From IMG/VR virus record IMGVR_UViG_3300029419_000277: DNA of 64,000 bases. One strand, given 5' to 3'. Each line of letters starts with the position of its first letter. Positions within the stretch are counted from its first letter, which is position 1. The notes below the pieces were generated by a model, which saw only the letters and a list, made by a program, of their open reading frames with translations, did not search any database and was not told the origin of the DNA. Origin of the DNA: a virus. Below, piece after piece: positions 17,184 to 36,614 of the stretch. The translations under genes and the position numbers were made by a program.

Positions 17184-20100
17184 TTATTTGCTGTCTTCCG
17201 TCAGCCATGCACGGATCTGGCAGTAATAGCCGTCTGCCCATGCCTGATAGCCTCTTCCGGACGGGTGGATGCTGTTGGTCAGCGTCCGGCTGGTTTCCGT
17301 GAATCGGTTCGTCACCGGCTTATCCGAATACGGAAATGCCAGACGGCGGTCCGTGCGAAGACCGTGGGCAAAACAGGTCACGTTTTTGCGATACTTGCCA
17401 GCATCAAATGCCTTGATCAGTGCAAGGTTCAGCGTGTTGATGCTCATATGGAAGATACCCATGCTGGAACCGCACTGATAAGAATAATCCGAGCCGGGAC
17501 CACAAAGACCGATACCGATCTTGCAGTTCGGGAAGCCCGTTTCCTTATCCAGCAGCGCATCGATGAACTGCTTCGCCTGATCCACGAACTTCTGCACCTC
17601 TGCTTCCGTGCGGTACAGTGTAGTGCCCTGTGACACATCATTGGTGCCAAGTGCGATCAGAAAGTAATCGATGCCCTCATAGCCGTTGGTCTCGCAGTAT
17701 TTCTGGAAATCCAGACGGCCTTTGATCTTGTCCCAGAACGCATTCGTTTTGCCGGCGTAATCCGTATCTGCCAGATACCGGGCAAAGGTCCAGCTGCCGC
17801 GTCCTTCGTGCTTGCCGCCAGACGGTCCTCTCGTTCCCAGCTGGTGGATCACGCAGTCATTATCCTCTGCCAGCAGACGGTACACTTCCGTTGCCACAGA
17901 ACCATTGTCCACGAGAGAGTCTCCACAGATGCAGATATTCTTCGTGAGCTTGTCCTTCAGCTTATGGTGAACCCTGACCTGGACAGGTTTGGACGATACC
18001 GTATGGCAGTCATCTTCATCCAGACGGCAGACGGTCAGTGCAAAATCCGTACTGTCCTTCGTCGGCGTGTAGTTCATGCAGTACTCGTTCCGGGTCAGGC
18101 TCGGTGCATTCGTGCCTCTGGCGAGCACATACAGATTTTCCTTGCCATCGTGGCGGGAAAGACAGTCAAAGAAGATGGAAAGCTGGCGTCCCTCCATGCA
18201 GTCCCAGTGGGACGGGGTCACGATGTCATCCTCTACAGCCGGAGTAATGGCTTTCTGCACATAATCCGTGATACGCTTCGGGATGAAAGATGCCGCGTTA
18301 TCTGCGAAGAGATCACCCGCTTTGTATTCCTTACCGCCCACAATGAACTTCACATCCGGGTGAATGTGCGGATTATACAGCTTGCTCTGATACCAGGATG
18401 CAATATAGAAACCATTCGTGCCCAGCTTGCGGAACAGGCTGGTATCGTACAGGTTGATGGTTCTCGTGCCAGCATCATAAGCAAGGATGCGCATCGGCAT
18501 ACCAAATGTCGAGCTGGGTGTGTTAAATGCCATCTCTACCGGATCGCCTGCCATGATCCACTCATAGTGGAACGTATCCGGAACACCCAGACACTTGGTA
18601 CTGACCTGGATCGTACCGGCATCCTGGTCAATGGTAATACCGCCGCTTGCCAGATACATATGGCGGGAATCCTTACCGGCAAGATCCGTGCGGAGCTGCT
18701 GAAAGCGGTCCTCATACTTCTTTTCGATATAGGAATCACGCCGTTCTTCATCGAAAAGCTCACCAGCCTTATAAGTCGTGCCATCCAGCACAATGCTGAA
18801 AGAGGAACCCATGTGCGGATACCAGAAATGGTTTTCATACCATGCAGCGATATAGTAGCCGTTTACTCCCAATGCCCGGAACTGTGCAGTGTTGTAAAGA
18901 TTGATCTGATCTATGGACGAGTCATAGGCAAGGATCAGCATGTGATGCTTTTCTGCTTCCGTACTATCCAACATCGGTACCGGCTCCTCACTAGCACTGA
19001 TCCAGTAGTAAGCACCGTTATCGACAACCGCCAGGATACGTTTCGTGACCTGAATGGTGCGGTTGACCGTATCGATCGCAAACTGGCCTGTAGCGAGGAA
19101 CATCTTTGCTGAACGGTACTTGTGCCAGGTCATCGCAGTATTCGCAATCTTGGCTGGATTGCCATAATCAATCCCGTTGATGACTGTACCGCTGCTCGAA
19201 GGAGCTGCGTACACCACATTCCAGTCAAAAAAGACCGCAAACACAAAGCGGCCCTTTGTGAATAGATCGCCCCAGCTATCGCCGCTTGTATTTTCCACCT
19301 TAATGACAGGGACTTCTGTCTTTTCTCCCGTCTCGTTTGCGGATGCTTCCGCACCATCATAGTAGATCGCCCACCATTTTCCCACTACTGCAAAGTCAAA
19401 CGAGGTACTGTTTTCCGCCACCAGTTTCGTCTGCTCGTACTGTATACCATTTGTACGGCGGCAGACATACACACTCTTTCCCTCCGGGAATGTGACTGTC
19501 ACCTTGCTGCCCGTGAACCTGATATCCACGCTGCCGTTCATCCACTGCCAGCCTGTTGCGTAATTTGACAGCAATCTCATCGGGAGCATATTGTCATAGA
19601 GGTACACCGAGAGCTTCGAGAACAGCTTTTCATTGGTGGTGACAGAGATGAAACGGGTATTCGGAAGCAGTGTGATCACATAGTTGTCATAGACCTTGCC
19701 GCTCTCTGCCCGGAAACAGCCACCGAGGAACTTACGGTCCATGTCATAGCAGACCACGTTGTTATAGTCATCCCGGCCGCTCATATAGCCGAACTGACCG
19801 TCCACCAGAATCGCATCACCGCTGACCGGGACCATGTGCGCCACGCGCCAGCTTTCCGAAGCTACAAGGTTGCCGTTCTGGTTTGCGTAACCATTTTTGA
19901 TCACCCAGTTCTTCATGATATTCTGCATGGAACGCACCCTGCCGACCGCACGGATATTGTCACCGGCTGTGGGATAAGTCTTTCCCTCATCATCCACACG
20001 GGCATCTACAAGCTCCTGTGCATAGTTGGCATTTTTATCTGTAGATGCCTTGACGTTGGCATTGATCTGGGCTTTCAGCGTTTCTGCAGTCTTATCCATC

Positions 20101-20489
20101 TCGGACTTACTGGCCGCAACCGCACTGTTTGCGGCATCGACCTTCTGGGTGATATCCGCTACATCCTGTGCGGTCATCTTGCGCAAGGCTGCCACATCTG
20201 ATGCAGTATCTGTACGAAGCTGCTCTACATCTGCCGCAGTATCCTTGCGGAACTGCTCCACTTCTTCTGCCGTATTCTGACGGTACAGAGCCATCTGTTC
20301 CGAGAACCGGGAACACATCGCCCAGTATTCCTCCTGTGACAGAAGCGTTCCGGCCGGTACAGGTTTCCGGCTCATATAGCTGTCGCCTGTGGATTCCTCA
20401 TACACAATGGTAAGAGGCTCATATTCTTTTGCTTTGTCCCAGACACCATCATGGCGAGGGACGATTCGGTTTCCGATATATTCCGACAT
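17184..20489 (-). CDS. tail fibre / receptor-binding protein 2 with tandem repeat domains and SGNH/GDSL hydrolase domain
   Basis: 1101 aa; N-terminus GNRIVPRHDGVWDKAKEYE shared with the 14741..17047 product; two ~115-aa internal repeats (..ILAYDSSIDQINLYNTAQFRALGVNGYYIAAWY.. / ..ILAYDAGTRTINLYDTSLFRKLGTNGFYIASWY..); GDSL block ICICGDSLVDNG...ALGTND. Confidence 0.7.
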   Translation of the reverse strand: MSEYIGNRIVPRHDGVWDKAKEYEPLTIVYEESTGDSYMSRKPVPAGTLLSQEEYWAMCSRFSEQMALYRQNTAEEVEQFRKDTAADVEQLRTDTASDVAALRKMTAQDVADITQKVDAANSAVAASKSEMDKTAETLKAQINANVKASTDKNANYAQELVDARVDDEGKTYPTAGDNIRAVGRVRSMQNIMKNWVIKNGYANQNGNLVASESWRVAHMVPVSGDAILVDGQFGYMSGRDDYNNVVCYDMDRKFLGGCFRAESGKVYDNYVITLLPNTRFISVTTNEKLFSKLSVYLYDNMLPMRLLSNYATGWQWMNGSVDIRFTGSKVTVTFPEGKSVYVCRRTNGIQYEQTKLVAENSTSFDFAVVGKWWAIYYDGAEASANETGEKTEVPVIKVENTSGDSWGDLFTKGRFVFAVFFDWNVVYAAPSSSGTVINGIDYGNPAKIANTAMTWHKYRSAKMFLATGQFAIDTVNRTIQVTKRILAVVDNGAYYWISASEEPVPMLDSTEAEKHHMLILAYDSSIDQINLYNTAQFRALGVNGYYIAAWYENHFWYPHMGSSFSIVLDGTTYKAGELFDEERRDSYIEKKYEDRFQQLRTDLAGKDSRHMYLASGGITIDQDAGTIQVSTKCLGVPDTFHYEWIMAGDPVEMAFNTPSSTFGMPMRILAYDAGTRTINLYDTSLFRKLGTNGFYIASWYQSKLYNPHIHPDVKFIVGGKEYKAGDLFADNAASFIPKRITDYVQKAITPAVEDDIVTPSHWDCMEGRQLSIFFDCLSRHDGKENLYVLARGTNAPSLTRNEYCMNYTPTKDSTDFALTVCRLDEDDCHTVSSKPVQVRVHHKLKDKLTKNICICGDSLVDNGSVATEVYRLLAEDNDCVIHQLGTRGPSGGKHEGRGSWTFARYLADTDYAGKTNAFWDKIKGRLDFQKYCETNGYEGIDYFLIALGTNDVSQGTTLYRTEAEVQKFVDQAKQFIDALLDKETGFPNCKIGIGLCGPGSDYSYQCGSSMGIFHMSINTLNLALIKAFDAGKYRKNVTCFAHGLRTDRRLAFPYSDKPVTNRFTETSRTLTNSIHPSGRGYQAWADGYYCQIRAWLTEDSK

Positions 20490-23942: not shown

Positions 23943-26900
23943 TTACTTGAAGACCGAATCATCCTCGTGGATCATGCCGTTGATCTTATCGGCAACGGTC
24001 TGTGCGAGTTCATCATCGTTCCGGGCATTGTAGCCGTTGACCGTGATATATACGCCACCAAGGTTGGTCGTCCGGGTGGTACCGCCTCCGGCCAGAGCCG
24101 CCTGCGGGAAGTTCCAGCCAGAGCCATCGAAGTGCGGCAGGGTCAGTTCCGGCAGACTGAAGGAACTGATGCCCTCCATACCCTGCTGCACCTTTGCTGC
24201 CATCGACCTGATCTGGCTGATTAGTCCGCCCTCGCCTTTCTTGATGCCGCCGGAAAGCAGCTTCATAAAGTCTGGCATATAGGTGTCCGCATCTGCCAGA
24301 GGTCCTTCATCCGGCACAGAGAAGTGCAGGAACGAACGGATACCGCTTGCCACACTCTTGACCGCACTGCCGACCCAGCTCACACCCTTTTTGATGCCTC
24401 CTGCAATACCGCCAACGATATCCTTGCCCCAGCTGACTGCCGAGGAAGCCACGTTCTTGATACCGCCCCAGATGGACGATGCCACGTTGCCGATGGCAGA
24501 AGCCGCATTGGAGATACCGTTCTTGATGGCATTTACTCCATTCGAGAATACCGAAGTGACCTTGTTCCAGATATTCGTGACTCCTTCCCGGAAGCCATCG
24601 CAGTTTTTCCAGAGAGCGGTCAGTCCAAGACCGATGCCGCCAACGGCTGCCACTGCGATACCTGCAGGACCCGCCAGGCCAGCAAGTGCTGTGCCTGCGG
24701 ATGCGAGGAAACCACCTGCGGAGCTTGCTACGCCTGCAAGAGCCGTACCCGCACCTGCCGCCAGACCAGATACGGCCGTGCCAACCGAGCCGAACAGTCC
24801 TGCGATTGCGGAGCCGGCAGAACCAGCAATTCCGCCCAATGTGGAACCCACACCAGACAGAAGCCCAGAAAGACTGCCGCCTAAGCCACCGATCTTCGTC
24901 ACTACACCGGAAAGCAGCCCGCCCAGATTCGACAGGATTCCCCCACCGCTGGAGCTAAGGCTTCCCAGCTTCGAGATAATGCCAGTGATGCCTTCTCCGA
25001 GGCCGCCCATCTTGGAAGTCAACCCGGAGATCAGGTTGCCAAAGTTCGACACGATCTGACCGCCATCTGCACTGCCGATTTTCGACAGGAAACTGCCGAT
25101 GTTGGACAGCAGGCCGCCGCCGTTCTCTGTGCCGAGAACATTGCCGAGGTTCTGCATCGTACTTCCAAGGTTTCCGATGGTGTTCTTCATGGAACCGAGC
25201 TTGTCCACAAGCCCCGTGACCGTATTGACCGTGTCACCGACCTTGCTGATGCCGTTGCCGAGGCTCTTTAAGAAATCCGAGTTGAAGGTATCGCCAAGGC
25301 TGCGGATCGCATTCCCAAGGGAACTGGTCTGAGAACTCAGCTCTCCGATGGATGTTTTCATATCCGCAAAGCCCTGCTTCACCTCATCGCTCATATTTCC
25401 GACAGCGGCTTTTGTAATCCCCTGCAGGTCCGTCCAGAGCTGCTGGAACTGGGTCTTCACCCCGGAAAGCCCGGACATCAGCTGAGACTGGATACCGCTT
25501 CCCACATCCCTTGCAGCACTACCGATACCGCTCTGACTTTTCTTGATCGTAGTAGCAAAACTGCCGACCACGGAATCCATCCAGTCGCCCAGAGAATCTA
25601 CCGGGGTCGTAAGGTTGTTGCTCATAGACCCGGCAAGTCCCTGCACGGCTTTCACCACCGACTTGACATTTTTTTTAATGCCGGTCGCCAGCAGCTTCAT
25701 GAAGTCGGGCATATAGGTATCTGCATCAGACAGAGGTCCTTCATCTGGTACAGAGAAATGCAGCAGACTTCTGACCCTGCTTGCGACATTTTCCGCCGCT
25801 GCGATCACGGAACCGGCCGCTGCCCGGACACCTGCCGCCATCTGGGAACAGATATCTGCGCCCCAGCGGTATGCAGAAGAAGCAATCGAACCGAGCGAGT
25901 TAAAACTGCTCCTGATACTTGCAACACCGGAAGAAACCGTGCTGCGCAGGCTGGACATTGCCGAAGACACCGTGGACTTGATGCTGTTGAAGGCAGAGGT
26001 CGTGGTGGATTTCAGTGTGTTCCAGCCGCTTGTGGCCGTACTGCGAACTGCGGATACAGAGGAAGTTGTAAGACTCTTGATGCTGTTCCATGCAGTCGTG
26101 ATGACCGTCTTGATACCATTCCAGCTGGTGTTCGTCAGAGTTTTCACTGCGTTCCATGCGCTTGTCATGGAAGATTTGACAGAAGCAGTTGCCGAAGTAG
26201 TCAGAGACTTGATTCCATTCCATGCTGTGGTGATAACACTCTTGATACCGTTCCAGCTGGTCGTTGTCAGCGACTTTACCGCACTCCATGCACTGGTCAT
26301 GGAAGATTTGACAGCTGCTGTCGCAGAGGTCACATTGGATTTCACCGCCGCAAAGCTGGTCTGGATGGTGGTCTTGATGCTGTTCCATGTGCTCGTGGTA
26401 CTGGTTGTAATGGAACTCCATGCGGATCTCATCGCGGCACTCACACCTGCCGTTCCGGTCTTCACCGTCTGGCTGATGGCCGCCCAGCTCTTACTGTATG
26501 CCTGCTCCACTCCCCTCATGGAGTTGGTGATGGAAGTAGACAGCGTGGTGGACAGATTCTCTGCCGCCGCAGTTACAAGGCTGGTGTTGGTCGTGATGCC
26601 GTTTGCCAGTCCCTGCATGAAGTCCGGCATCCAGCTTTCCATATCTGCCAGAGGCCCCTCATCCGGCACAGAGAAGTGCAGGAAAGAGCGGATACGGTCC
26701 GCCACTCCCGATACGGCGCTTGCCACATCCTGAATCCTCGACTGGATACCGGACACAATGTTGCCGATCATGTCCGAGCCCCACGAGAATGCCTGTCCAG
26801 CCAGACCCTTGATAAAGGAAACTGCACTGTTAAAGCCGTTCGTGATGGTGGACTTAATACCGGAAATGGTAGAGGAAATCCCGGATTTCATCGAGTTAAA

Positions 26901-29852
26901 AGCTGTGGTCGCCGCGCTCTTGATGCTGTTACTGAGGGACGAAACCGTAGACTTCATGGCATTCCAGCCGGAAGAAACCACCGATTTGATACCATTTACC
27001 ACACCGGAGATTTTGCTGCTGATGGCGCTCCAGATGGAAGAAACCGTGGACTGGATTGCTGAAAGGACAGTCGAAATGACCGTCTTGATTGCATTCCATG
27101 CCGTACTCATCCGGGTCTGAATGCCAGTCAGCAGCGGAGACAGGAACGATACAATAGCGTTCCATACAGTTGTCACCGCGGTCTGGATTGCAGTTAGCAC
27201 CGTAGATATGGCTGTCTGGATCGCGGACCAAACCGTAGAGAAAGTCGTCTGCAATCCAGTCAGGATCGGAGTCACAAAGGCGACGATGGCGTTCCAGATG
27301 GAAGTGATCTTCGTCTGGATCGCAGTCAGTGCTGCACCGATCAGGATCTGAATTGCCTGCCAGATGGTTTCAAACAGATATTTGAACGCATCCAACAGAG
27401 GTTTCATGGTGTTGTAGATGCCATTCCACACCGAAGTGATCGTCGTGCTGATGGTGTTCATGACCGTAGAAATCGCAGTCGAGATCGCCGTCCACACAGT
27501 TGTCACCGTGGTATGGATCGTATTCAACACAGAAGAAACGGCTGTGGAAATGGCAGTCCAGATGGTGCTGAAGGTCGTCTGGATACTCGTAAGGACAGTC
27601 GTAAAGAAGCTCGAAACTGCAGTGAACACAGTCGTTGCCACACTCTGGATAGCAGAAACTGTGTTTGAAAAGAAGCTGCTGATTCCGCTCCACACGGTCT
27701 CAAAGAAGCTCTTGATACTGTCCCAGACCGTCTGCCAGTCTGTCCCAAACAGACCGAGGAACACATCCAGTGCGCTCTTTAGTGCGGTAAGCGTCGTGGA
27801 GAATACAGACTTCACACCTTCCCAGATGCTGGCGAAGATTTCCTTTACCGCTTTCCATGCACCGCTCCAATTGCCGGAGAACACATTGGAAAAGACATCG
27901 AACAGACCGAGCAGCGTATCCAGAACCGTACTCAATACCGTAGCCATAATCTGGAATGCTCCCTCGAACAGCGGTGCAAGCACCTGACAGAAGCCATCCC
28001 AGACGGCTTTCAGTACCTCAGTGACATCCTTAAAATCAAAGCCCAGCCCGTTGATCCGCTGTGTCAGCTGGTCGCAGAAGCCTTTCACCTTGGAAACAAT
28101 GTCGTTCCAGATGCCGGTAATGGCAGTGCGGAACTCCTCGTTGGTGTTCCAGAGGTTCATGAACGCCGCCACCAGCGTACCGATGACCGCCACCACTGCT
28201 ACGACCGGCCCGGACAGACCACCCAGAACCACACCCAGCTTGCTGAACACACCGCTGGCACTGCCCACATGGGTGATGAGAAGCCGGACACCCTTTGCAA
28301 GAGAACTGAATCCCCGCATCGCTGTGCCGACGGTCGATATGGTCTTGCCCAGCACAATAAGCAACGGACCAATGGATGCCGCCAGAAGTCCGATCTTGAT
28401 GATCGTTTCCCTGGTGCTTTCATCCATGCTGTTCAGCTTGTCCACGAACTGCTGCACGGCAGATACGATCTTGCGGATGGTGGGCATCAGGATATCGCCA
28501 AAAGAAATAGCCAGCTCCTCCAGCTGAGATTTCAGGATGGTAAGCTGACCATTTAAATTGTCCTGCATGGTTTCTGCCATGCTCTCGGATGCGCCGTCAC
28601 AATTTTCAATGGCACCACGCAGTTTGTTGATGTCCGTCTCGCTGGAATTCATCAGGGCAAGGAAACCGGACATCGCATTCTTGCCGACCAGTGCCTCTGC
28701 ATTGGATGCTTTTTCAGATTCGGTCAAGCCGGAGAATGCTACACGGCAGTCTGCGAGGATATCGTTCAGGCTCCTCATACTGCCATCTGCATTGCTGGTG
28801 GCAATCGTAACCTCACCGATGTTCTTGCCTGCAAAGGTCACTTCACCGGAAAGGTTGTTCATGATGGTACGAAGGGACGTACCAGCCTGCGAAGCCTTGA
28901 TACCACTATTTGCCATAAGTCCGATGGCTTCTGCGGTATCCTCTGCCGAGAACCCCAGCGCACCGGCAATAGGCGCACAGTACTTGAACGTCTCGCCCAT
29001 CATGGAGACGTTGGTGTTCGCATTGGAGGAAGCGGCTGCGAGGATATCGGCAAAATGCCCAGAATCCGCAGCGGATAAGCCGAACGCGGTAAGGGCATCG
29101 GTAACAATATCTGAAGTCGTAGCGAGGTCTTCACCCGAAGCGGCCGCGAGGTTCATGACGCCCTCGATGCCGTTCAGCATGTCAGAAGTCTTCCATCCGG
29201 CCATGGCCATGTATTCCATCGCCGAAGCTGCCTCGGATGCAGAGAACTTGGTCTTTGCACCCATCTCACGGGCTTTCGCACGGAGCTGGTCAAAGTCATC
29301 CCCGGTCGCACCGGAAATGGCAGAGACCTTACTCATCTCGGAATCAAAATCGGCTGCGGTCTTCACTGCGGCAGTGCCAAGACCCGTCACAGCGGCAGTC
29401 ACCGGAAGGAACTTCTTGCCTACATTCTCCACAGAAGATCCGATGTTCTGGAGCTTTTCTCCAGCTTCATCGATCTTGGCAAGCGTCGCATTGGTAGTAG
29501 CCGCCTGATCCTGTAAGGATCGCAGATTCTGTTCGGTCTCCACGATCTCACGCTGAAGAGCATCGTACTGCTGCTGGGTGATCTCACCGTTGGCAAGCTG
29601 CTCATTAGCCTGCTGTGCGGCAGTTTTCAAAGTTGCCAGCTTTTCCTTAGTGGCTTCAATGGCATCCTTCAGCATCTTCTGCTTCTGGACGACCAGTTCT
29701 GTATTGGAAGGGTCCAGTTTCAGGAGTTTGTTGACATCCTTCAGTCCGGACTGCGTCCCCTTGATTGATTTGTTTACACTTTCCAGTGCTTTGGAGAGCT
29801 TTGTGGTATCGCCGCCGATCTCAACGGTGATGCCCTGGATTCTGGATGCCAT
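23943..29852 (-). CDS. tail tape measure protein (TP901 family), 1969 aa
   Basis: TP901-type tape-measure core (FDSEMSKVSAISGATGDDFDQLRAKAREMGAKTKFSASEAASAMEYMAMAGW); start assigned to MASRIQGITVEIGGDTTKL at 29852 because GAGGAGGTG lies 9 nt upstream (the ORF track begins at a GTG at 29897); huge low-complexity T/S/A-rich repeat region; three copies of an HFSVPDEGPL..D..YMPDFM motif. Confidence 0.85.
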   Translation of the reverse strand: MASRIQGITVEIGGDTTKLSKALESVNKSIKGTQSGLKDVNKLLKLDPSNTELVVQKQKMLKDAIEATKEKLATLKTAAQQANEQLANGEITQQQYDALQREIVETEQNLRSLQDQAATTNATLAKIDEAGEKLQNIGSSVENVGKKFLPVTAAVTGLGTAAVKTAADFDSEMSKVSAISGATGDDFDQLRAKAREMGAKTKFSASEAASAMEYMAMAGWKTSDMLNGIEGVMNLAAASGEDLATTSDIVTDALTAFGLSAADSGHFADILAAASSNANTNVSMMGETFKYCAPIAGALGFSAEDTAEAIGLMANSGIKASQAGTSLRTIMNNLSGEVTFAGKNIGEVTIATSNADGSMRSLNDILADCRVAFSGLTESEKASNAEALVGKNAMSGFLALMNSSETDINKLRGAIENCDGASESMAETMQDNLNGQLTILKSQLEELAISFGDILMPTIRKIVSAVQQFVDKLNSMDESTRETIIKIGLLAASIGPLLIVLGKTISTVGTAMRGFSSLAKGVRLLITHVGSASGVFSKLGVVLGGLSGPVVAVVAVIGTLVAAFMNLWNTNEEFRTAITGIWNDIVSKVKGFCDQLTQRINGLGFDFKDVTEVLKAVWDGFCQVLAPLFEGAFQIMATVLSTVLDTLLGLFDVFSNVFSGNWSGAWKAVKEIFASIWEGVKSVFSTTLTALKSALDVFLGLFGTDWQTVWDSIKSFFETVWSGISSFFSNTVSAIQSVATTVFTAVSSFFTTVLTSIQTTFSTIWTAISTAVSSVLNTIHTTVTTVWTAISTAISTVMNTISTTITSVWNGIYNTMKPLLDAFKYLFETIWQAIQILIGAALTAIQTKITSIWNAIVAFVTPILTGLQTTFSTVWSAIQTAISTVLTAIQTAVTTVWNAIVSFLSPLLTGIQTRMSTAWNAIKTVISTVLSAIQSTVSSIWSAISSKISGVVNGIKSVVSSGWNAMKSTVSSLSNSIKSAATTAFNSMKSGISSTISGIKSTITNGFNSAVSFIKGLAGQAFSWGSDMIGNIVSGIQSRIQDVASAVSGVADRIRSFLHFSVPDEGPLADMESWMPDFMQGLANGITTNTSLVTAAAENLSTTLSTSITNSMRGVEQAYSKSWAAISQTVKTGTAGVSAAMRSAWSSITTSTTSTWNSIKTTIQTSFAAVKSNVTSATAAVKSSMTSAWSAVKSLTTTSWNGIKSVITTAWNGIKSLTTSATASVKSSMTSAWNAVKTLTNTSWNGIKTVITTAWNSIKSLTTSSVSAVRSTATSGWNTLKSTTTSAFNSIKSTVSSAMSSLRSTVSSGVASIRSSFNSLGSIASSAYRWGADICSQMAAGVRAAAGSVIAAAENVASRVRSLLHFSVPDEGPLSDADTYMPDFMKLLATGIKKNVKSVVKAVQGLAGSMSNNLTTPVDSLGDWMDSVVGSFATTIKKSQSGIGSAARDVGSGIQSQLMSGLSGVKTQFQQLWTDLQGITKAAVGNMSDEVKQGFADMKTSIGELSSQTSSLGNAIRSLGDTFNSDFLKSLGNGISKVGDTVNTVTGLVDKLGSMKNTIGNLGSTMQNLGNVLGTENGGGLLSNIGSFLSKIGSADGGQIVSNFGNLISGLTSKMGGLGEGITGIISKLGSLSSSGGGILSNLGGLLSGVVTKIGGLGGSLSGLLSGVGSTLGGIAGSAGSAIAGLFGSVGTAVSGLAAGAGTALAGVASSAGGFLASAGTALAGLAGPAGIAVAAVGGIGLGLTALWKNCDGFREGVTNIWNKVTSVFSNGVNAIKNGISNAASAIGNVASSIWGGIKNVASSAVSWGKDIVGGIAGGIKKGVSWVGSAVKSVASGIRSFLHFSVPDEGPLADADTYMPDFMKLLSGGIKKGEGGLISQIRSMAAKVQQGMEGISSFSLPELTLPHFDGSGWNFPQAALAGGGTTRTTNLGGVYITVNGYNARNDDELAQTVADKINGMIHEDDSVFK

Positions 29853-29995
29853 TTGCGTAACCACCTCCTCGCAGGCATGAAAAAAGCCCATCTGCACGAA
29901 GCAGACAGGCTAAAGGAAAAAATGCTATTAGCTGTGTATCAAAGTCATCCTTTCAGCATACAATATATTTATCAGTAAATTTATCGACTAACCGG

Positions 29996-30024
29996 TTGAT
30001 ATTTTTGCAAACGTGTGCTATAAT
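29996..30024 (+). promoter_or_regulatory. consensus-like sigma70 promoter (TTGATA-17-TATAAT) for the toxin-antitoxin operon
   Basis: -35 TTGATA at 29996-30001, 17-nt spacer, -10 TATAAT at 30019-30024; AGGAG at 30037-30041; ATG at 30051. Confidence 0.6.
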
Positions 30025-30050
30025 GCAATCAAAGAAAGGAGTTGACGATT

Positions 30051-30374
30051 ATGGCTTCTGTTATGAGTGCTATTACCAACACTGTTCCAATCACCCAATT
30101 CAACCGTGGTCTTGCCGGAAAAATATTTGAAGATGTCAAGCAGTGCGGTGCCAAGGTTGTTATGAAAAACAATGCTGCCGAATGCGTTCTCATCTCCCCG
30201 GACGAATATGTCCGTTTAATGGATGAATTAAATGATGCTCGTCTGCTGGCTGTTGCTTCTGAACGTATGGCACACTTTGATCCCACCTCTTTGATTTCTG
30301 AGGAAGAAATGAACCGCCGTCTCGGTGTTACAGAAGACGATCTCGCCGGTTTTGACGAGGTAGAAATCGAATGA
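30051..30374 (+). CDS. type II antitoxin, Phd/YefM family
   Basis: 107 aa from ATG 30051 (the TTG at 30042 in the ORF track is too close to the RBS); Phd/YefM-like fold signature; 4-nt ATGA overlap with the downstream toxin. Confidence 0.8.
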   Translation: MASVMSAITNTVPITQFNRGLAGKIFEDVKQCGAKVVMKNNAAECVLISPDEYVRLMDELNDARLLAVASERMAHFDPTSLISEEEMNRRLGVTEDDLAGFDEVEIE

Positions 30375-30706
30375 GCTGGAAAGTTGAATACCTCCCTGAA
30401 GCAGAAAAAGACCTCAAAGGTTTAGATGGTAGCCAGCGCAATCTTGTTCTGAAAGCCATCAAAAAAGTTCAGCAAAATCCACTGCCTGTTGATGAACAGG
30501 GCTACGGCAAACCGCTCGGCAATCACAACAGCACTAACCTTGCAGGACTTCTGAAAATCAAACTCCGCTCTGCGGGTCTGCGCATTGTCTATCAGCTTCG
30601 ACGTACTGAGACATCTATGATGATTATTGTCATTGGAGTCCGTGCTGATGAAGAAGTGTACGAACTTGCCCAGAAGAGAGTTCTGAAGCACGAAAAGTCC
30701 GATTGA
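30371..30706 (+). CDS. type II toxin, RelE/ParE family
   Basis: 111 aa; RelE/ParE-like motifs (..LLKIKLRSAGLRIVYQL...MMIIVIGVRADEEVY); translationally coupled to the antitoxin. Confidence 0.8.
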   Translation: MSWKVEYLPEAEKDLKGLDGSQRNLVLKAIKKVQQNPLPVDEQGYGKPLGNHNSTNLAGLLKIKLRSAGLRIVYQLRRTETSMMIIVIGVRADEEVYELAQKRVLKHEKSD

Positions 30707-30805
30707 CTTTTTCTGCCTAATCGACTATACTTTGATGATGATCAGGTTTCGGTAACCTTGCGAGGTCCGAGACCGGGAAGATGACCTTCGGGCCACCTTC
30801 TTTCT

Positions 30806-30836
30806 CCCCCAGTTGTGCACGGCTGGGGGATTTTTT
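30806..30836 (+). terminator. rho-independent terminator after the TA operon
   Basis: CCCCCAG (30806-30812) / CTGGGGG (30823-30829) stem followed by TTTTTT (30831-30836). Confidence 0.6.
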
Positions 30837-30903: not shown

Positions 30904-31445
30904 TTAGAACCGGTCAAAGTCCTCCTGCGATGCCAGTTCCTTATACGGATACTCGTCGTTCTGCCGCTCCGTAAACATATCATTGACCAACCCGATGGTC
31001 AGCAGGTCGAGGTCGGCGATGCTGATACCGAGCTGTACACAGCGCAGCAGAAAGAGCGGGGTGGTCATTTCCCGCTCACTTTTTCGAGGTTTTTTCTGGA
31101 TTCCACCTCCGTCTGCACGTTCAGACCCCACAGTTCGATCAGCTGGGGCAGGATCTGGTAGATGGAGAAGGTGTTGAACTGGTCCAGAAACTCCTCCGGG
31201 CTGTCCGGCACCTTTGCCGGGTCCGCATGACGAGCCATCAGCCATGCCAGGTCCTCGAACATCTCCAGACTGAACAGGTCGAGGTTGGAATTGTCCTCAT
31301 CGTTCTCCCCCACGCTCTTTTCCAGCTGGCGCAGGTCTTTATAAATGTCACGGCCAAACTTGATGCGGTACAGGCGCGGCACGGCGGCACTTGCCTTAAA
31401 AGTGACTTCCTTGCCATCGATCTCGATTTTCTTCGTAACTGCCAT
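30904..31445 (-). CDS. tail assembly chaperone GT fusion produced by programmed -1 frameshift
   Basis: The -1 frame ORF 30904..31245 overlaps the 3' end of G; slippery heptamers A_AAA_AAC (plus 31089-31095) and G_AAA_AAG (plus 31079-31085) lie just before the G stop. The -1 frame reads ..QKKPRKSEREMTTPLFLL.., continuing the ORF. Confidence 0.5.
31065..31445 (-). CDS. tail assembly chaperone (gpG-like)
   Basis: 126 aa from ATG 31445 (GGAGG 8 nt upstream; the ORF-track Met at 31469 lacks an RBS); acidic protein immediately upstream of the tape-measure region. Confidence 0.7.
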   Translation of the reverse strand: MAVTKKIEIDGKEVTFKASAAVPRLYRIKFGRDIYKDLRQLEKSVGENDEDNSNLDLFSLEMFEDLAWLMARHADPAKVPDSPEEFLDQFNTFSIYQILPQLIELWGLNVQTEVESRKNLEKVSGK

Positions 31446-31477
31446 AATCGTAATCCTCCAAAATTTCATGTAAAATT

Positions 31478-31497
31478 GGCAGAGCCGAAGCCCTGCC
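31478..31497 (-). promoter_or_regulatory. UUCG-tetraloop hairpin (copy 1) between the SPFH gene and the chaperone gene
   Basis: ggcagagccgaagccctgcc; minus-strand RNA forms GGCAGGGC-UUCG-GCUCUGCC. The same 18-nt core recurs at 32368-32385. Confidence 0.55.
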
Positions 31498-31511
31498 GTA
31501 TATCGTGTTTC

Positions 31512-32342
31512 TTACTCTGCCGGGTCAATGCTCACCAGTGCATTACCGCCGCTCACAGTAGGCAGCTTACCATCCCACTTCTGGATCTTCTGGTACTCGA
31601 TCAGCGTATCGGACAGGCTTTCTGCCAGTTTGCGGTTTGCCTCTGCCTGTGCTTCTGCGGCAATGGAAGTCTTCTGGGCTTCCGCCTCTGCATTGGTGAT
31701 TGCCACCTGCTTATCCGCTTCTGCCTTGGCAATGGCGGCTTCATTCTCGATCTTCTGCTTATCTGCATTCTGCTGTGCAATGGACTTCTGCTGGATGGCT
31801 TCGTTATAAGCATCCTCGAAATTCATGTCGTTGATGACGACCTTGTTCACAAACACAACGTCCTCACCATATTTCTGCACAAGGGATTCTGCCAGCTTCT
31901 GTTGTGCCAGAGGCTCAATCTTGGTGCGGTTTGTCACCTCATTGGGGCCAAGTTCAGCCATCGCAGACTTGATGGCAGATGCCACCAGCTCATCACCAAC
32001 CAGATTCTTGATGTCGGACACATTCGCATACAGCCATGCACTCTTCTCAGGAAGCACCTGATAGGTCACGATCACATCAGCGGCATACACAGGGGTCTTG
32101 TCGGAGGCTTCGCCCCAGACCTGCGCTTCGATGTGCTTATCCTGCTGCTTGTTGTTGACCTTGTGGATGCTCTGCACAAAGGGAATGCAGAAGTTGAGCT
32201 TGCCGCTCTGAATGGTGGTTTTCTGGATCTGACCGAAGCTGGTCTTCACGCCCGTGTAACCGGTGGGGATGATGTGGAACGAGCAGACAGCCAGCACCAG
32301 AACGATGATCACTGCGAACAAAGGAAAAAACTTCTTCATAAT
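31512..32342 (-). CDS. SPFH/band-7 (stomatin/prohibitin/HflK-C-like) membrane protein
   Basis: 276 aa from ATG 32342 (AAGAGG RBS); N-terminal TM helix (MKKFFPLFAVIIVLVLAV) then IIPTGYTGVKTSFGQI... SPFH core and Ala/Glu/Gln-rich coiled-coil tail; the upstream ORF-track extension lacks an RBS. Confidence 0.8.
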   Translation of the reverse strand: MMKKFFPLFAVIIVLVLAVCSFHIIPTGYTGVKTSFGQIQKTTIQSGKLNFCIPFVQSIHKVNNKQQDKHIEAQVWGEASDKTPVYAADVIVTYQVLPEKSAWLYANVSDIKNLVGDELVASAIKSAMAELGPNEVTNRTKIEPLAQQKLAESLVQKYGEDVVFVNKVVINDMNFEDAYNEAIQQKSIAQQNADKQKIENEAAIAKAEADKQVAITNAEAEAQKTSIAAEAQAEANRKLAESLSDTLIEYQKIQKWDGKLPTVSGGNALVSIDPAE

Positions 32343-32367
32343 CGTATACCTCTTTATAATAATGTAA

Positions 32368-32385
32368 GCAGAGCCGAAGCCCTGC
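32368..32385 (-). promoter_or_regulatory. UUCG-tetraloop hairpin (copy 2) between the major tail gene and the SPFH gene
   Basis: gcagagccgaagccctgc, identical core to 31478-31497; lies 17 nt after the major tail protein stop. Confidence 0.55.
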
Positions 32386-32401
32386 AGTGTGTGTCGGTCA
32401 C

Positions 32402-33016
32402 TTAGCCCTGCGGCTCCTCGGTGTGACTGGTGTCTTCGGTGTCCACAGCTTCTGCCTGCGGCTCGTAGACCGCATCGTACCATTTGTTATAGACATCATC
32501 GGTGGTGTTAGTACCGGTCTTTGCCTTGACATAACCGTTTGCCAGAGGGGTTGCCTGCAGGTTCAGAGTGTCCGTCTTGACTTCCTTACTGTCCTCATTG
32601 GTCTCACCCTCGATGGACGGACGGCTTGCCACACAGTTGTACAGCACATGACGGATGTGGCGCTGGTCGCCATCGAACTCAAACAGGAAGGCGAAATGCT
32701 CCAGTTCCACATTGGCGTTCTCAGCAAGCACGCCGTTGCCATCCAGCTCCTCGTGCATGATGTCCGTGAGGAAGCTCTCCGGGATCAGTGCGATTTCCAG
32801 ATCACCCTCGTAGCCGGAGTTGTTATTCACGACATAGTAGGCGATATTGTCCGCATAAAACGGCTCGATCTCGCCATTGGCATCCATCGAAAGACTGACT
32901 GCACCGGGGATGCGGACCGGCTTCGCATAGGTGACACTGCCATCTTCGTCAAAGGTCGCCTTTGCATAATGGCAGTTTTTCAGGCCAAATTTGACCTTAT
33001 TGCTTTTCTTCGACAT
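32402..33016 (-). CDS. major tail protein (TP901-1/phi13-like family)
   Basis: 204 aa; MSKKSNKVKFGLKNCHYAKATFDEDG... typical N-terminus of this major tail family; position between tail completion genes and chaperones. Confidence 0.75.
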   Translation of the reverse strand: MSKKSNKVKFGLKNCHYAKATFDEDGSVTYAKPVRIPGAVSLSMDANGEIEPFYADNIAYYVVNNNSGYEGDLEIALIPESFLTDIMHEELDGNGVLAENANVELEHFAFLFEFDGDQRHIRHVLYNCVASRPSIEGETNEDSKEVKTDTLNLQATPLANGYVKAKTGTNTTDDVYNKWYDAVYEPQAEAVDTEDTSHTEEPQG

Positions 33017-33050: not shown

Positions 33051-33368
33051 TCACACAGTCAGCTCATACAGGACTTCATACATTTTTTCGGTTTCGATCC
33101 AGACCTCGCTTTTCTCATAGTAGAGTTCGTGTGCGGTCAGGACTTCTTCAATAGTTGCTTCCATATCCGGGTCTTTGTAATCGGTGTACACCTCGATGTC
33201 CAGCCGGTTGAAATGGTGGTACACAAGGTTATCTGCGCCGAAATTCTCGGCTTTCGGATACAGGAAGCAGATAAACGGTGGATCAGGACTCTCCCCTTCT
33301 GCGAAATGGTCATACGCATAAGGAAGCCCCATTTCCTCCACCAGAGCTTTTACTTCTTCGTGGGTCAT
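33051..33368 (-). CDS. tail completion / tail terminator-like protein (hypothetical)
   Basis: 105 aa; acidic; conserved position just upstream of the major tail gene. Confidence 0.45.
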   Translation of the reverse strand: MTHEEVKALVEEMGLPYAYDHFAEGESPDPPFICFLYPKAENFGADNLVYHHFNRLDIEVYTDYKDPDMEATIEEVLTAHELYYEKSEVWIETEKMYEVLYELTV

Positions 33369-35714: not shown

Positions 35715-36614
35715 TCACTTCATGCACTCAAGCTGTCTCATCAGGATATTGTAGGGGATGCTGCCATCCTCGGTCTTGCCGTCCATGTCAAGGACAGGGC
35801 CGGAATTAGCAGGCGGTTCTGCCGGAGGGGTCGGCTCTGCGGACAGTTTCGGGTCAGCAGGCGGCTCCTTCGGCTCAGTGTGTTTCTGACCCACATCTTC
35901 CGGTTTCACACCCAGACGGTTCAGGACGATTAAATCCATCTGACGGCTGGAGAAAAGGTGCCCTGCCGTATCCTTCTGGAACGGCTTCTTTTCTTCGCTC
36001 TCGCCCGATTCACTGTCGGGGTCTTCTTCCGGATTCTCCGGGTCTGCCGGGTCACTGTCCGGCTCCTCCTCTTTCTTTGCAAAGAGGATCTCGTCTGCAA
36101 AGCCCAGCTCCACCGCCTTCTTCGCATTCATCCAGGTCTCATTGCTCATGAGGTTGGCGATACGGGCGTGGCTGAGGCCGCTCTTCGCTGCGTAGGCATT
36201 GATGATACTTTCCTTGACTTCGGTCAGCACCTCGATGGCCTTTTCCATGTCCTTGGTGTTGCCCATTGCAACAGTGCTGGGGTCATGGATCATCAGCATG
36301 GCAACAGGACTCATCTGGACAGTATCACCAGCCATTGCCACAACGGATGCAGCAGATGCCGCAATCGCATCGATCTTGACCGTGATGCTGCCCTTGTAAT
36401 CCTTAAGCATGGTATAGATCTCGGCAGCGGCGAACACATTGCCGCCCGGAGAGTTGATCCAGACGGTCACATCCCCCTCGCCGGATTCCAGCTCATCCCG
36501 GAACATCTCCGGCGTGATCTCATCACCCCAGAATGATTCCTCATCAATGGGACCTTCCAGCCGGAGGATTCTGGTATCATCACTGTTTTTGATCCAGTTC
36601 CAGAATTTCTTCAT
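35715..36614 (-). CDS. ClpP-like prohead maturation protease (S14 family) with acidic C-terminal scaffold-like region
   Basis: 299 aa; ClpP motifs (VWINSPGGNVFAAAEIY...IDAIAASAASVVAMAG...MIHDP). Confidence 0.85.
   Translation of the reverse strand: MKKFWNWIKNSDDTRILRLEGPIDEESFWGDEITPEMFRDELESGEGDVTVWINSPGGNVFAAAEIYTMLKDYKGSITVKIDAIAASAASVVAMAGDTVQMSPVAMLMIHDPSTVAMGNTKDMEKAIEVLTEVKESIINAYAAKSGLSHARIANLMSNETWMNAKKAVELGFADEILFAKKEEEPDSDPADPENPEEDPDSESGESEEKKPFQKDTAGHLFSSRQMDLIVLNRLGVKPEDVGQKHTEPKEPPADPKLSAEPTPPAEPPANSGPVLDMDGKTEDGSIPYNILMRQLECMK

Follow-up and report, generated by a model that had tools for sequence, protein, structure and literature searches.

Introduction

Genes for proteins of the SPFH (stomatin/prohibitin/flotillin/HflK-C, or Band-7) family are already widely annotated in phages and are not new as such. 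They have been noted since at least 2006, in the T4-like phages 44RR, Aeh1, and RB43 (PMC1524935), and are also annotated in Vi01-like phages (PMC3220722). The SPFH gene of Burkholderia phage CSP3 has been called a moron and speculatively tied to HflC (PMC10269572). PHROG 200, a family devoted to phage SPFH proteins, includes this gene product (orf75) together with proteins of Faecalibacterium phages FP_Toutatis and Lelie, Fusobacterium phage phiFN37, and Escherichia phage Skarpretter, and SPFH homologues are present in 130-150 kb Mammaliicoccus and Acinetobacter phages. We found no experimentally established function for any phage SPFH protein, and a literature search on SPFH proteins in phage defence or exclusion returned genome-annotation mentions only. 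Here we analyse an SPFH gene in 64,000 nucleotides (nt) of the IMG/VR virus record IMGVR_UViG_3300029419_000277 (hereafter the window; positions count from its first letter). The gene lies in the late tail operon, between the gene for the major tail protein (MTP) and the gene for the tail assembly chaperone (TAC), and a hairpin module stands on either side of it.

Like the other phage SPFH proteins, to which it is 23-45% identical, the window protein is a membrane-anchored Band-7 protein of the ~230-300-residue class encoded by a single gene. In the three phages inspected, however, the SPFH gene lies in an early or replication region, whereas here it lies in the late tail operon and is flanked by the duplicated hairpin module. 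Among deposited phages, the best homologue is 44.5% identical, and all of the nearest relatives come from metagenomes or prophages.

The best sequence matches among solved structures are HflC and QmcA. In E. coli, HflK and HflC form an SPFH cage that modulates FtsH. The window protein has a basic N-terminus and a single transmembrane segment, as in HflC, and a long C-terminal helix, but it is not an orthologue, it is encoded by one gene rather than a pair, and its host is a monoderm bacterium of the Clostridium type. SPFH proteins are also encoded in Clostridia chromosomes. One of them, which has the Band_7 domain and is 46% identical along its full length, is found in a Clostridia metagenome-assembled genome from water-deer colon (locus L168; L-numbers denote fetched related loci). 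It is a plausible source of the gene. In contrast to the window gene, it stands beside genes of a housekeeping type (for a glycosyltransferase, kinases, a Na+/H+ exchanger, and an AraC regulator), and no hairpin-YTACAT modules flank it.

Morons, in the concept of Hendrix and Juhala, are extra genes between conserved late genes, known from lambdoid and HK97-like phages. The window gene resembles them in lying between genes that are adjacent in relatives, in the terminator-like hairpin after it, in its patchy distribution, and in its apparent host origin. It differs from them in that no promoter is detected, it is fixed in a sub-lineage, it is under strong purifying selection, and its junction module is duplicated and appears to evolve in concert. 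Hairpins between phage late genes also have precedents, in RNase III-type processing hairpins such as the T7 R sites and in read-through terminators such as those after major structural genes. The predicted hairpins of the window are likewise GC-rich stem-loops with stable tetraloops and a covarying structure, located after a highly expressed structural gene. They differ in that many variants have a weak U-tract or none, the motif YTACAT(GAA) follows the stem, and no Rfam family matches. Our literature search on hairpins after major tail genes returned nothing specific, and the description of 'Ca. Heliusvirales', the gut phages to which the window is related, does not mention SPFH, prohibitin, or stomatin. 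Specific to the present locus are the tail-operon position, the duplicated, covarying, and concertedly evolving junction module, and the natural pairs of phages with and without the gene, together with cultured lysogens.

Results

A hairpin module on both sides of the SPFH gene

An initial annotation of the window, made from the sequence alone, described the same hairpin on each side of SPFH, at 32368-32385 and 31478-31497. This description is accurate. The 18-mer GCAGGGCTTCGGCTCTGC, which reads GCAGGGC-UUCG-GCUCUGC on the transcript, occurs at exactly 32368-32385 and 31479-31496, one copy per side, and an extra G-C pair extends hairpin 2 to 31478-31497 (Table 1). The window contains no further copy of GCAGGGCTTCGGCTCTGC with up to three mismatches allowed. 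By chance 0.08 matches are expected, and none of 100 shuffles contains two or more copies. The annotation also located and typed the gene between the hairpins correctly, but its length of 831 bp counts one extra upstream ATT codon, and the coding sequence is 828 bp.

The likeness of the two sites extends beyond the stem. The MTP-SPFH intergenic region (IG1) and the SPFH-TAC intergenic region (IG2) can be aligned from the stop codon to the ATG with 49 identical columns, and they have in common TAAG, the hairpin, TTACAT, a ribosome-binding site, and TACGATTATG. A repeat search reports a 21-nt direct repeat of 95% identity and a 31-nt repeat of 71% identity, ~890 nt apart. A genome-wide repeated element of the REP or MITE type was considered and rejected; the hairpin, and the module of hairpin, YTACAT, and ribosome-binding site, occur at two sites of the window only. 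No Rfam family matches in the intergenic regions, and the only hits are weak chance matches to the terminator of a nearby toxin-antitoxin cassette.

SPFH is an accessory gene at the MTP-TAC junction

With three different MTPs as queries, we retrieved loci centred on the MTP gene and classified each distinct interval between MTP and TAC. SPFH is present in all 74 distinct intervals in which the MTP is at least 88% identical to that of the window; 69 copies are intact, and five are broken by frameshifts or internal deletions. Natural variants with internal deletions include L099, L103, L108, and L127. All 74 of these close relatives have two hairpins, and none combines the gene with a single one. 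By contrast, nothing lies between MTP and TAC in 29 distinct intervals with MTPs 63-75% identical, and in deposited Heliusvirales genomes TAC follows MTP directly.

SPFH recurs in three further backgrounds (L163/L195/L269, L165, and L196/L274), and phages with and without it are interleaved on the trees of MTP and of the tail terminator. In particular, L196, which carries SPFH, and L197, which does not, are 94.6% identical in nucleotide sequence through the MTP gene. The same resident hairpin, GGCAGGGATGAAACACTCCCTGCC, stands ahead of SPFH in L196 and ahead of TAC in L197. L192 and L194 also do not carry SPFH, yet their TACs fall in the cluster of SPFH-carrying phages. SPFH is therefore accessory across the wider group and fixed within the sub-lineage of the window. 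Since the gene is absent from sister lineages and occasionally broken, it appears not to be needed to build the virion. In accordance, the view of the initial annotation that SPFH is no part of the tail structure agrees with its being non-obligatory in clades, for both MTP and tail terminator, that include SPFH-less phages such as L197.

The SPFH-less junctions, save the exception named below, share one layout: ~10-20 nt after the stop codon stands a GC-rich hairpin of 8-9 bp, (C)TACATGAA comes 0-5 nt later, and a U-rich stretch, GGAG, and the ATG complete the junction. The initial annotation had suggested looking in phages lacking the insert for a single hairpin between MTP and TAC, and we find it, followed by CTACATGAA...GGAG...ATG, in 23 of 24 distinct SPFH-less junctions (the exception is L001). 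The sequence 3' of the stem in these junctions is that of IG2 in the window, TACATGAAAT(TTT)GGAGGA. When the window is aligned with SPFH-less L194 by blastn, the match is lost close to the end of MTP and starts again exactly at 31473, at the TTACAT of IG2. Because the SPFH-less junctions match IG2 and the L194 alignment resumes there, IG2 is, as judged from these alignments, the ancestral-type MTP-TAC junction and IG1 its duplicate. The prevalence of the single hairpin in SPFH-less junctions indicates that the module was resident and got duplicated, as the annotation had proposed for the hairpin, and the end-to-end alignment of IG1 and IG2 is in agreement. Precise excision between the two repeats is not found among the 74 distinct close junctions. 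L192 and L194 may have lost SPFH by recombination between the repeats.

Three loci (L072, L146, and L160) have an additional open reading frame (ORF) of ~710 bp right after the hairpin, TACAT, and ribosome-binding site of IG2 and before the start of TAC (e.g. 5454-6235 in L160). As read from its translation, which ends in ...GFKGVSLHRSGKYRADIGVNGRTIYLGLFVTREEAAHAYDEAARKYHREFARTNF, it is a putative HNH/AP2 homing-endonuclease-like gene. It uses the ribosome-binding site of TAC and supplies a second one for TAC.

Four loci are degraded prophages: L158, L159, L161 (the chromosome of Faecalibacterium prausnitzii strain 2), and L172 (Blautia sp. BIOML-A1). In the first three, the sequence from mid-capsid gene up to the end of MTP or the start of SPFH is deleted, and SPFH is left in place; at the deletion junction of L159, CCGAGGAG forms a microhomology. 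The deletion in L172 spans from the tail terminator to mid-SPFH, and half of the gene is gone.

Conservation and concerted evolution of the hairpins

Folded one by one, 78 unique flanks yield 43 distinct hairpin sequences, among which loop lengths differ. All of them fold, with stems of 6-11 bp, energies of -9 to -23 kcal/mol, and a mean z of -3.9 relative to shuffles, and all 43 end 0-5 nt before YTACAT. Compensatory changes relate the stems GGCAGGGA/TCCCTGCC and GGCGGGGA/TCCCCGCC, and likewise GCAGGGC/GCTCTGC and GCGGGGC/GCTCCGC, the latter being the variant of hairpin 1 in L072 and L160. Because all variants fold and several differ by compensatory pairs, the hairpin structure is under selection. 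The YTACAT motif within 0-5 nt of the hairpin, usually in the form CTACATGAA in SPFH-less phages, is kept where the MTP is only 63-75% identical.

The two copies resemble each other within a lineage. Both stems are identical within the clade of the window. In the clade of ~88% identity, the UUCG loop is kept in IG1, and the IG2 hairpin is GGGCAGGGC-GGAG-GCUCUGCCC. L163 and L269 have GGGG(U/C)GGGG-AAAC-CCCG(C/U)CCC in IG1 and the closely similar GGGG(G)CGGGG-AAAC-CUGCCCC in IG2, and from the end of the hairpin to the ATG their IG1 and IG2 agree save at one position. The copies thus appear to be kept alike within each lineage by concerted evolution. Between lineages, the SPFH coding sequence that separates the copies has a synonymous divergence (dS) of 0.5-1.0; since the copies are nonetheless alike within a phage, either gene conversion would homogenise them or the whole block would move together.

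Divergence is uneven along the operon. Relative to the window, dS in L163 and L269 is 0.8-0.9 for SPFH, 0.6-0.8 for TAC, and 1.4-1.6 for MTP, and for the tail terminator it is saturated or very high (2.8 in L269). In addition, the TACs of SPFH-carrying phages cluster together on the tree. The contrast in dS and the clustering of TACs indicate that recombination in L163 and L269 had a breakpoint at IG1 or close to it, and suggest that SPFH spreads along with its downstream TAC.

The SPFH protein

The product has 275 residues. Its N-terminus is MKKFFPLFAVIIVLVLAVCSF, consisting of MKK and a hydrophobic anchor at about residues 4-21, and the anchor is followed by the SPFH domain, a long C-terminal helix, and a conserved tail (...KWDGKLP...). 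Residues 24-210 match positions 2-175 of the 176 in the Pfam profile Band_7 (PF01145; E=1.5e-16, 61.4 bits vs a cutoff of 23.6), and the protein matches the SPFH proteins of PHROG 200 with E=5e-41. Sequence matches in the PDB are HflC (1.7e-6), QmcA (3.6e-6, over nearly the full length), and prohibitins (~1e-5). An AF2 model, built from a shallow alignment, has a transmembrane helix at 5-20, strands at 67-96 and 163-174, helices at 98-158, and a helix at 175-254. Foldseek matches this model with probability 1.00 to structures that include prohibitin, HflK/C-FtsH, erlin, and stomatin; flotillin is also among the top matches. For isolated stomatin SPFH domains, the rmsd is 3.3-3.5 A and the target-normalised TM-score 0.6-0.7. 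The SPFH fold claimed in the initial annotation is thus found by profile, sequence, and structure comparison alike, and the gene is predicted to encode an N-terminally anchored protein of the SPFH (stomatin/prohibitin/flotillin/HflK-C) family.

Orthologues retain the basic N-terminus (MKK, or MKKK/MKKR) and the hydrophobic stretch. By the positive-inside rule, we infer an N-in/C-out, HflC-like topology, in which the SPFH domain would lie on the outer face of the membrane. The dN/dS of SPFH is 0.04-0.11 against seven to nine orthologues, and that of MTP is 0.04-0.17; purifying selection on SPFH is as strong as on its structural neighbours. Because the 46%-identical homologue in L168 stands among ordinary chromosomal genes of a Clostridia genome, the SPFH gene was probably captured from a host chromosome.

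Several narrower assignments were rejected. The protein is not an HflC orthologue, as it scores 33.9 bits with NCBIfam NF008259 (cutoff 427) and 25.1 with TIGR01932 (cutoff 134.4), and the paired hflK-hflC arrangement is not found at this locus, where a single SPFH gene has MTP and TAC as neighbours. An NfeD-family protein is the usual operon partner of prokaryotic SPFH proteins, but no NfeD gene adjoins SPFH here. The sole ClpP-fold protein in the vicinity is the prohead protease, encoded 3.4 kb upstream of SPFH at 35715-36614 on the minus strand (ClpP family, E=1.6e-33). It scores 21.9 bits, below the cutoff of 40, with NfeD1b_N, the N-terminal domain of NfeD1b, a similarity that probably reflects merely shared ClpP ancestry. 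Metagenomic 'ClpP+Band_7' fusion proteins exist (e.g. P0099), and some of them may be products of prophage deletions. Finally, PHROG 200 is annotated as lipoprotein. The lipobox sought was [LVI][ASTVI][GAS]C, closing the signal peptide and with a Cys that orthologues keep; the sequence here is an atypical L-A-V-C with V at -1, and its Cys is not conserved. The anchors of the orthologues L163 (MKKRILIIPALVILLILGILSVH) and L196 have no Cys, and none of the invariant or nearly invariant columns of the orthologue alignment is a Cys.

Transcription signals

A simple consensus scan, which could miss a weak or non-sigma-70 promoter, finds no sigma-70-like promoter upstream of SPFH on the minus strand. 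By eye, YTTACA-16-TACGAT in both intergenic regions resembles a promoter; it was rejected because its -10 hexamer ends 1 nt short of the ATG, which makes a translatable leader impossible. The term moron, which the initial annotation applied to SPFH, therefore holds in part: SPFH is an extra gene between genes that are adjacent in relatives (both in deposited Heliusvirales genomes and in the 29 distinct junctions that lack SPFH), but the scan gives it no promoter of its own, which a strict moron would use for expression from the repressed prophage.

The terminator-like scan is passed only by hairpin 2 and by a hairpin before the tape measure gene. Hairpin 2 has 8 bp followed by AAUUUUACAU, in which the U-tract is weak, and this element is the resident one, duplicated. 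Tails after the stems range from UUUUCUACAU to CAAUCUACAU.

Proposed role and alternatives

The explanation that we favour, and consider probable although far from assured, is that SPFH is an accessory gene at the MTP-TAC junction, with the junction module duplicated, that it is co-transcribed late, and that it has an HflC-like membrane role benefiting phage production. With no promoter of its own detected, SPFH would be transcribed along with the late tail operon. The hairpins would act as leaky terminators or 3'-end stabilisers and step expression down from MTP to the downstream genes. MTP is needed in hundreds of copies, and the chaperone and the tape measure in few. Duplication of the module would have left the 3' end of MTP and the leader of TAC both intact on insertion. 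The protein would insert N-in/C-out into the host membrane, like HflC, and its long C-terminal helix would let it oligomerise as an SPFH ring or cage that sits on the membrane's outer face. Late in infection, phage production may profit from its modulation of an FtsH-type host membrane protease, or of membrane integrity and lysis timing. A role late in the lytic cycle is favoured because no promoter is found for SPFH and because SPFH genes are annotated in phages reported as virulent or as having large, lytic-type genomes.

Several points weigh against this explanation. Every functional step in it is inferred. The link to FtsH comes from distant homology only (34 bits vs a cutoff of 427 for the HflC models), and protease regulation is not a function of many SPFH proteins. 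Confidence in the AF2 model is modest, with a mean pLDDT of 62, 70-87 in the core, and below 50 for residues 21-64. The U-tracts after the stems are poor (UUACAUUAUUAU in IG1, and e.g. CAAUCUACAU in many relatives), so that the hairpins are not canonical intrinsic terminators, and a terminator model leaves the conserved YTACAT(GAA) motif unexplained. The promoter scan has the limits given above. Moreover, SPFH is retained in the degraded prophages L158, L159, and L161, which fits a host-beneficial role of a gene expressed in lysogeny as well.

Such a role, in which SPFH made in the lysogen would block DNA injection by other phages (superinfection exclusion) or act in abortive infection, is possible but unlikely in our view, and we rank it below a late lytic-cycle role at the membrane. 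The phage appears temperate, prophage copies are present in Blautia, Clostridium fessum, and Faecalibacterium, the gene survives beside the large deletions just mentioned, and a toxin-antitoxin cassette of the lysogeny type lies 0.7 kb away; the predicted extracytoplasmic orientation would also place the SPFH domain where incoming phages act. However, that cassette has a near-consensus promoter, whereas upstream of SPFH no promoter-like site is seen on the coding strand, although this evidence comes from a consensus scan only. A search of PADLOC-DB v2 matches 0 families at E up to 0.01, the SPFH genes of virulent or large lytic-type phages argue for a role in the lytic cycle, and the degraded prophage L172 has lost half of its copy. 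The location within the tail operon, the presence in 74 of 74 distinct close relatives, and purifying selection equal to that on MTP would also suit a lineage-specific tail-assembly or virion-associated factor, for example a membrane platform for tape-measure or tail-tube assembly, and the clustering of the TACs of SPFH-carrying phages could then reflect co-adaptation. We hold such a factor to be highly improbable. SPFH-less sister phages and natural knock-outs make a structural or assembly role unlikely: L192 and L194 do without SPFH though their TACs fall within that cluster, L197 does without it though its MTP is almost the same as that of SPFH-carrying L196, and five close relatives have frameshifted or internally deleted copies. 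In addition, SPFH lies in early or replication regions in the other phages inspected, and we know of no membrane-anchored SPFH fold described among siphophage tail components.

The hairpins themselves might have no RNA function and be a scar of illegitimate or homologous recombination or a DNA-level recombination joint, identical because the duplication is recent. In support of this, the duplicated tract is the entire intergenic region and not the stem alone, the predicted breakpoint in L163 and L269 maps to IG1, and in L072, L146, and L160 an HNH/AP2-like ORF directly follows hairpin 2 with the ribosome-binding site again duplicated. Yet a single hairpin occupies the same place in SPFH-less phages whose MTPs are only 63-75% identical, and compensatory substitutions keep the stems while the loops differ. 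The copies are identical or nearly so within a phage although SPFH differs between lineages by dS 0.5-1.0, which calls for selection or gene conversion and not recency alone. Taken together, a scar without RNA function is distinctly improbable. A further proposal makes the hairpin-YTACAT module an active site of RNA processing, or of DNA recombination or gene conversion, that sets where promoter-less cassettes go into the tail operon of this very widespread group of gut phages, and makes SPFH a late, outward-facing membrane cage with a real phenotype (FtsH control, lysis timing, or phage exclusion). This logic resembles that of integron cassettes. It would explain why the copies are alike within a lineage and different between lineages, how SPFH entered or was exchanged into at least three MTP backgrounds at exactly the same point, why the HNH/AP2 gene stands right after the second copy, and why other cargo has gathered beside an analogous hairpin ahead of the tape measure gene. 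We consider the combined proposal quite unlikely.

Under the favoured explanation of a late-expressed accessory gene, the locus offers a base-pair record of how such a gene enters a tight late operon with its neighbours undisturbed, by way of a duplicated regulatory module at the junction, and it illustrates the concerted evolution of such duplicates. It is also a natural experiment, with near relatives with and without the gene, natural knock-outs, cultured lysogens, and a clear insertion signature. Among cultured lysogens, Clostridium fessum SNUG30386 and Blautia sp. HCP28S3_G10 have a 97-98% identical SPFH gene in the same prophage module. The lineage is abundant, as the SPFH protein clusters represent thousands of metagenomic sequences. 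If modulation of FtsH or of lysis timing is true, the classical connection between lambda and Hfl extends to phage-encoded SPFH proteins in Gram-positive gut bacteria.

The phage and other features of the tail operon

The region is 65-70% identical in nucleotide sequence to deposited 'Ca. Heliusvirales' gut phages of Lachnospiraceae and Oscillospiraceae. Near-identical copies of it are very frequent in IMG/VR, and prophage copies are found in genomes of Blautia, Clostridium fessum, Lawsonibacter, Wujia, and Faecalibacterium. From these comparisons, the phage is identified as a temperate, Heliusvirales-like siphophage of gut Clostridia; it is regarded as temperate because the window encodes large serine recombinases and because prophage copies occur in bacterial genomes. 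Of the two large serine recombinases counted, encoded by neighbouring large ORFs, the second is assigned by its domains and the first is putative (Table 1). The window also encodes an endolysin. The minus-strand structural module comprises, in order, terminase, portal, ClpP-type prohead protease, major capsid protein, connector proteins, tail terminator, MTP, SPFH, TAC, and tape measure. The placement of TAC between MTP and the tape measure gene agrees with related phages.

Table 1 Positions of the SPFH gene, the junction modules, and other features in the window
Feature	Position	Strand	Details
SPFH/Band-7 gene	31512-32339	-	275 aa; 828 bp including stop; ATG at 32339-32337
IG1, MTP-SPFH intergenic region	32340-32401	-	62 nt; hairpin 1, TTACAT 32362-32367, ribosome-binding site AAAGAGG 32349-32355
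Hairpin 1	32368-32385	-	GCAGGGC-UUCG-GCUCUGC; 7 bp including one G-U pair; exact match; centroid -12.1 kcal/mol
IG2, SPFH-TAC intergenic region	31446-31511	-	66 nt; hairpin 2, TTACAT 31468-31473, ribosome-binding site GGAGG 31455-31459
Hairpin 2	31478-31497	-	GGCAGGGC-UUCG-GCUCUGCC; 8 bp, then AAUUUUACAU; centroid -16.5 kcal/mol; terminator-like in scan
Tail terminator gene	33051-33368	-	
MTP gene, upstream neighbour of the insert	32402-33016	-	PHROG 88 major tail protein, E=7e-59; Pfam PF06488 phage tail tube protein, E=1.7e-7
TAC gene (G-like), downstream neighbour of the insert	31065-31445	-	PHROG 709, E=9e-40
TAC frameshift extension ORF (-1 frame)	30904-31245	-	PHROG 3033, E=4e-23
Toxin-antitoxin promoter	29996-30024	+	
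Toxin-antitoxin ORFs	30042-30374, 30371-30706	+	
Toxin-antitoxin terminator	30805-30830	+	
Third terminator-like hairpin of the tail operon	29885-29911	-	UUCG loop; 11 bp stem + TTTTT; then UUUUUCAUG
Tape measure ORF	23943-29897	-	1984 aa
Large ORF, second of two neighbours	9370-11730	-	~770-790 aa; large serine recombinase (Resolvase, Recombinase, Zn-ribbon domains)
Large ORF, first of two neighbours	7035-9335	-	~770-790 aa

Immediately ahead of the tape measure gene stands a third terminator-like hairpin of the tail operon. It is conserved in the relatives checked, whatever cargo precedes it, and is present in 102 fetched loci (several of these being fetches from the same contigs) with 20 sequence variants; in L030, which has no cargo, it directly follows the chaperone frameshift ORF. 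A U-run and (A/U)CAUG follow this hairpin, similar to YTACAT at IG1 and IG2.

The tape measure gene and the chaperone frameshift ORF enclose a toxin-antitoxin pair (29996-30830, plus strand), which lies 0.7 kb from SPFH. The Pfam matches for its Phd/YefM-like antitoxin and ParE/RelE-like toxin are weak; Phd_YefM is below the cutoff, and ParE barely reaches it. Its promoter matches the consensus at 11 of 12 positions and has an extended -10 (TG), and it has a terminator of its own, features by which the pair qualifies as a classical autonomous moron. In close relatives, TAC and the tape measure gene lie ~0.2 to 3.6 kb apart, and the toxin-antitoxin pair is present in only some of these phages. 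Therefore, the gap between the two genes is a second, truly variable hot spot for cargo.

The GTG start listed for the tape measure ORF overlaps the upstream hairpin. The true start is probably the ATG near 29852 (MASRIQG...), which has GAAGAGG ahead of it. The translation contains three copies of the motif R(I/V)RS(F/L)LHFSVPDEGPL(A/S)D..(S/T)(W/Y)MPDFM along its length. Two large distal tail proteins, encoded at 14741-17047 and 17184-20489 on the minus strand, have C-terminal GDSL/SGNH esterase domains and may be receptor-modifying or depolymerising tail enzymes.

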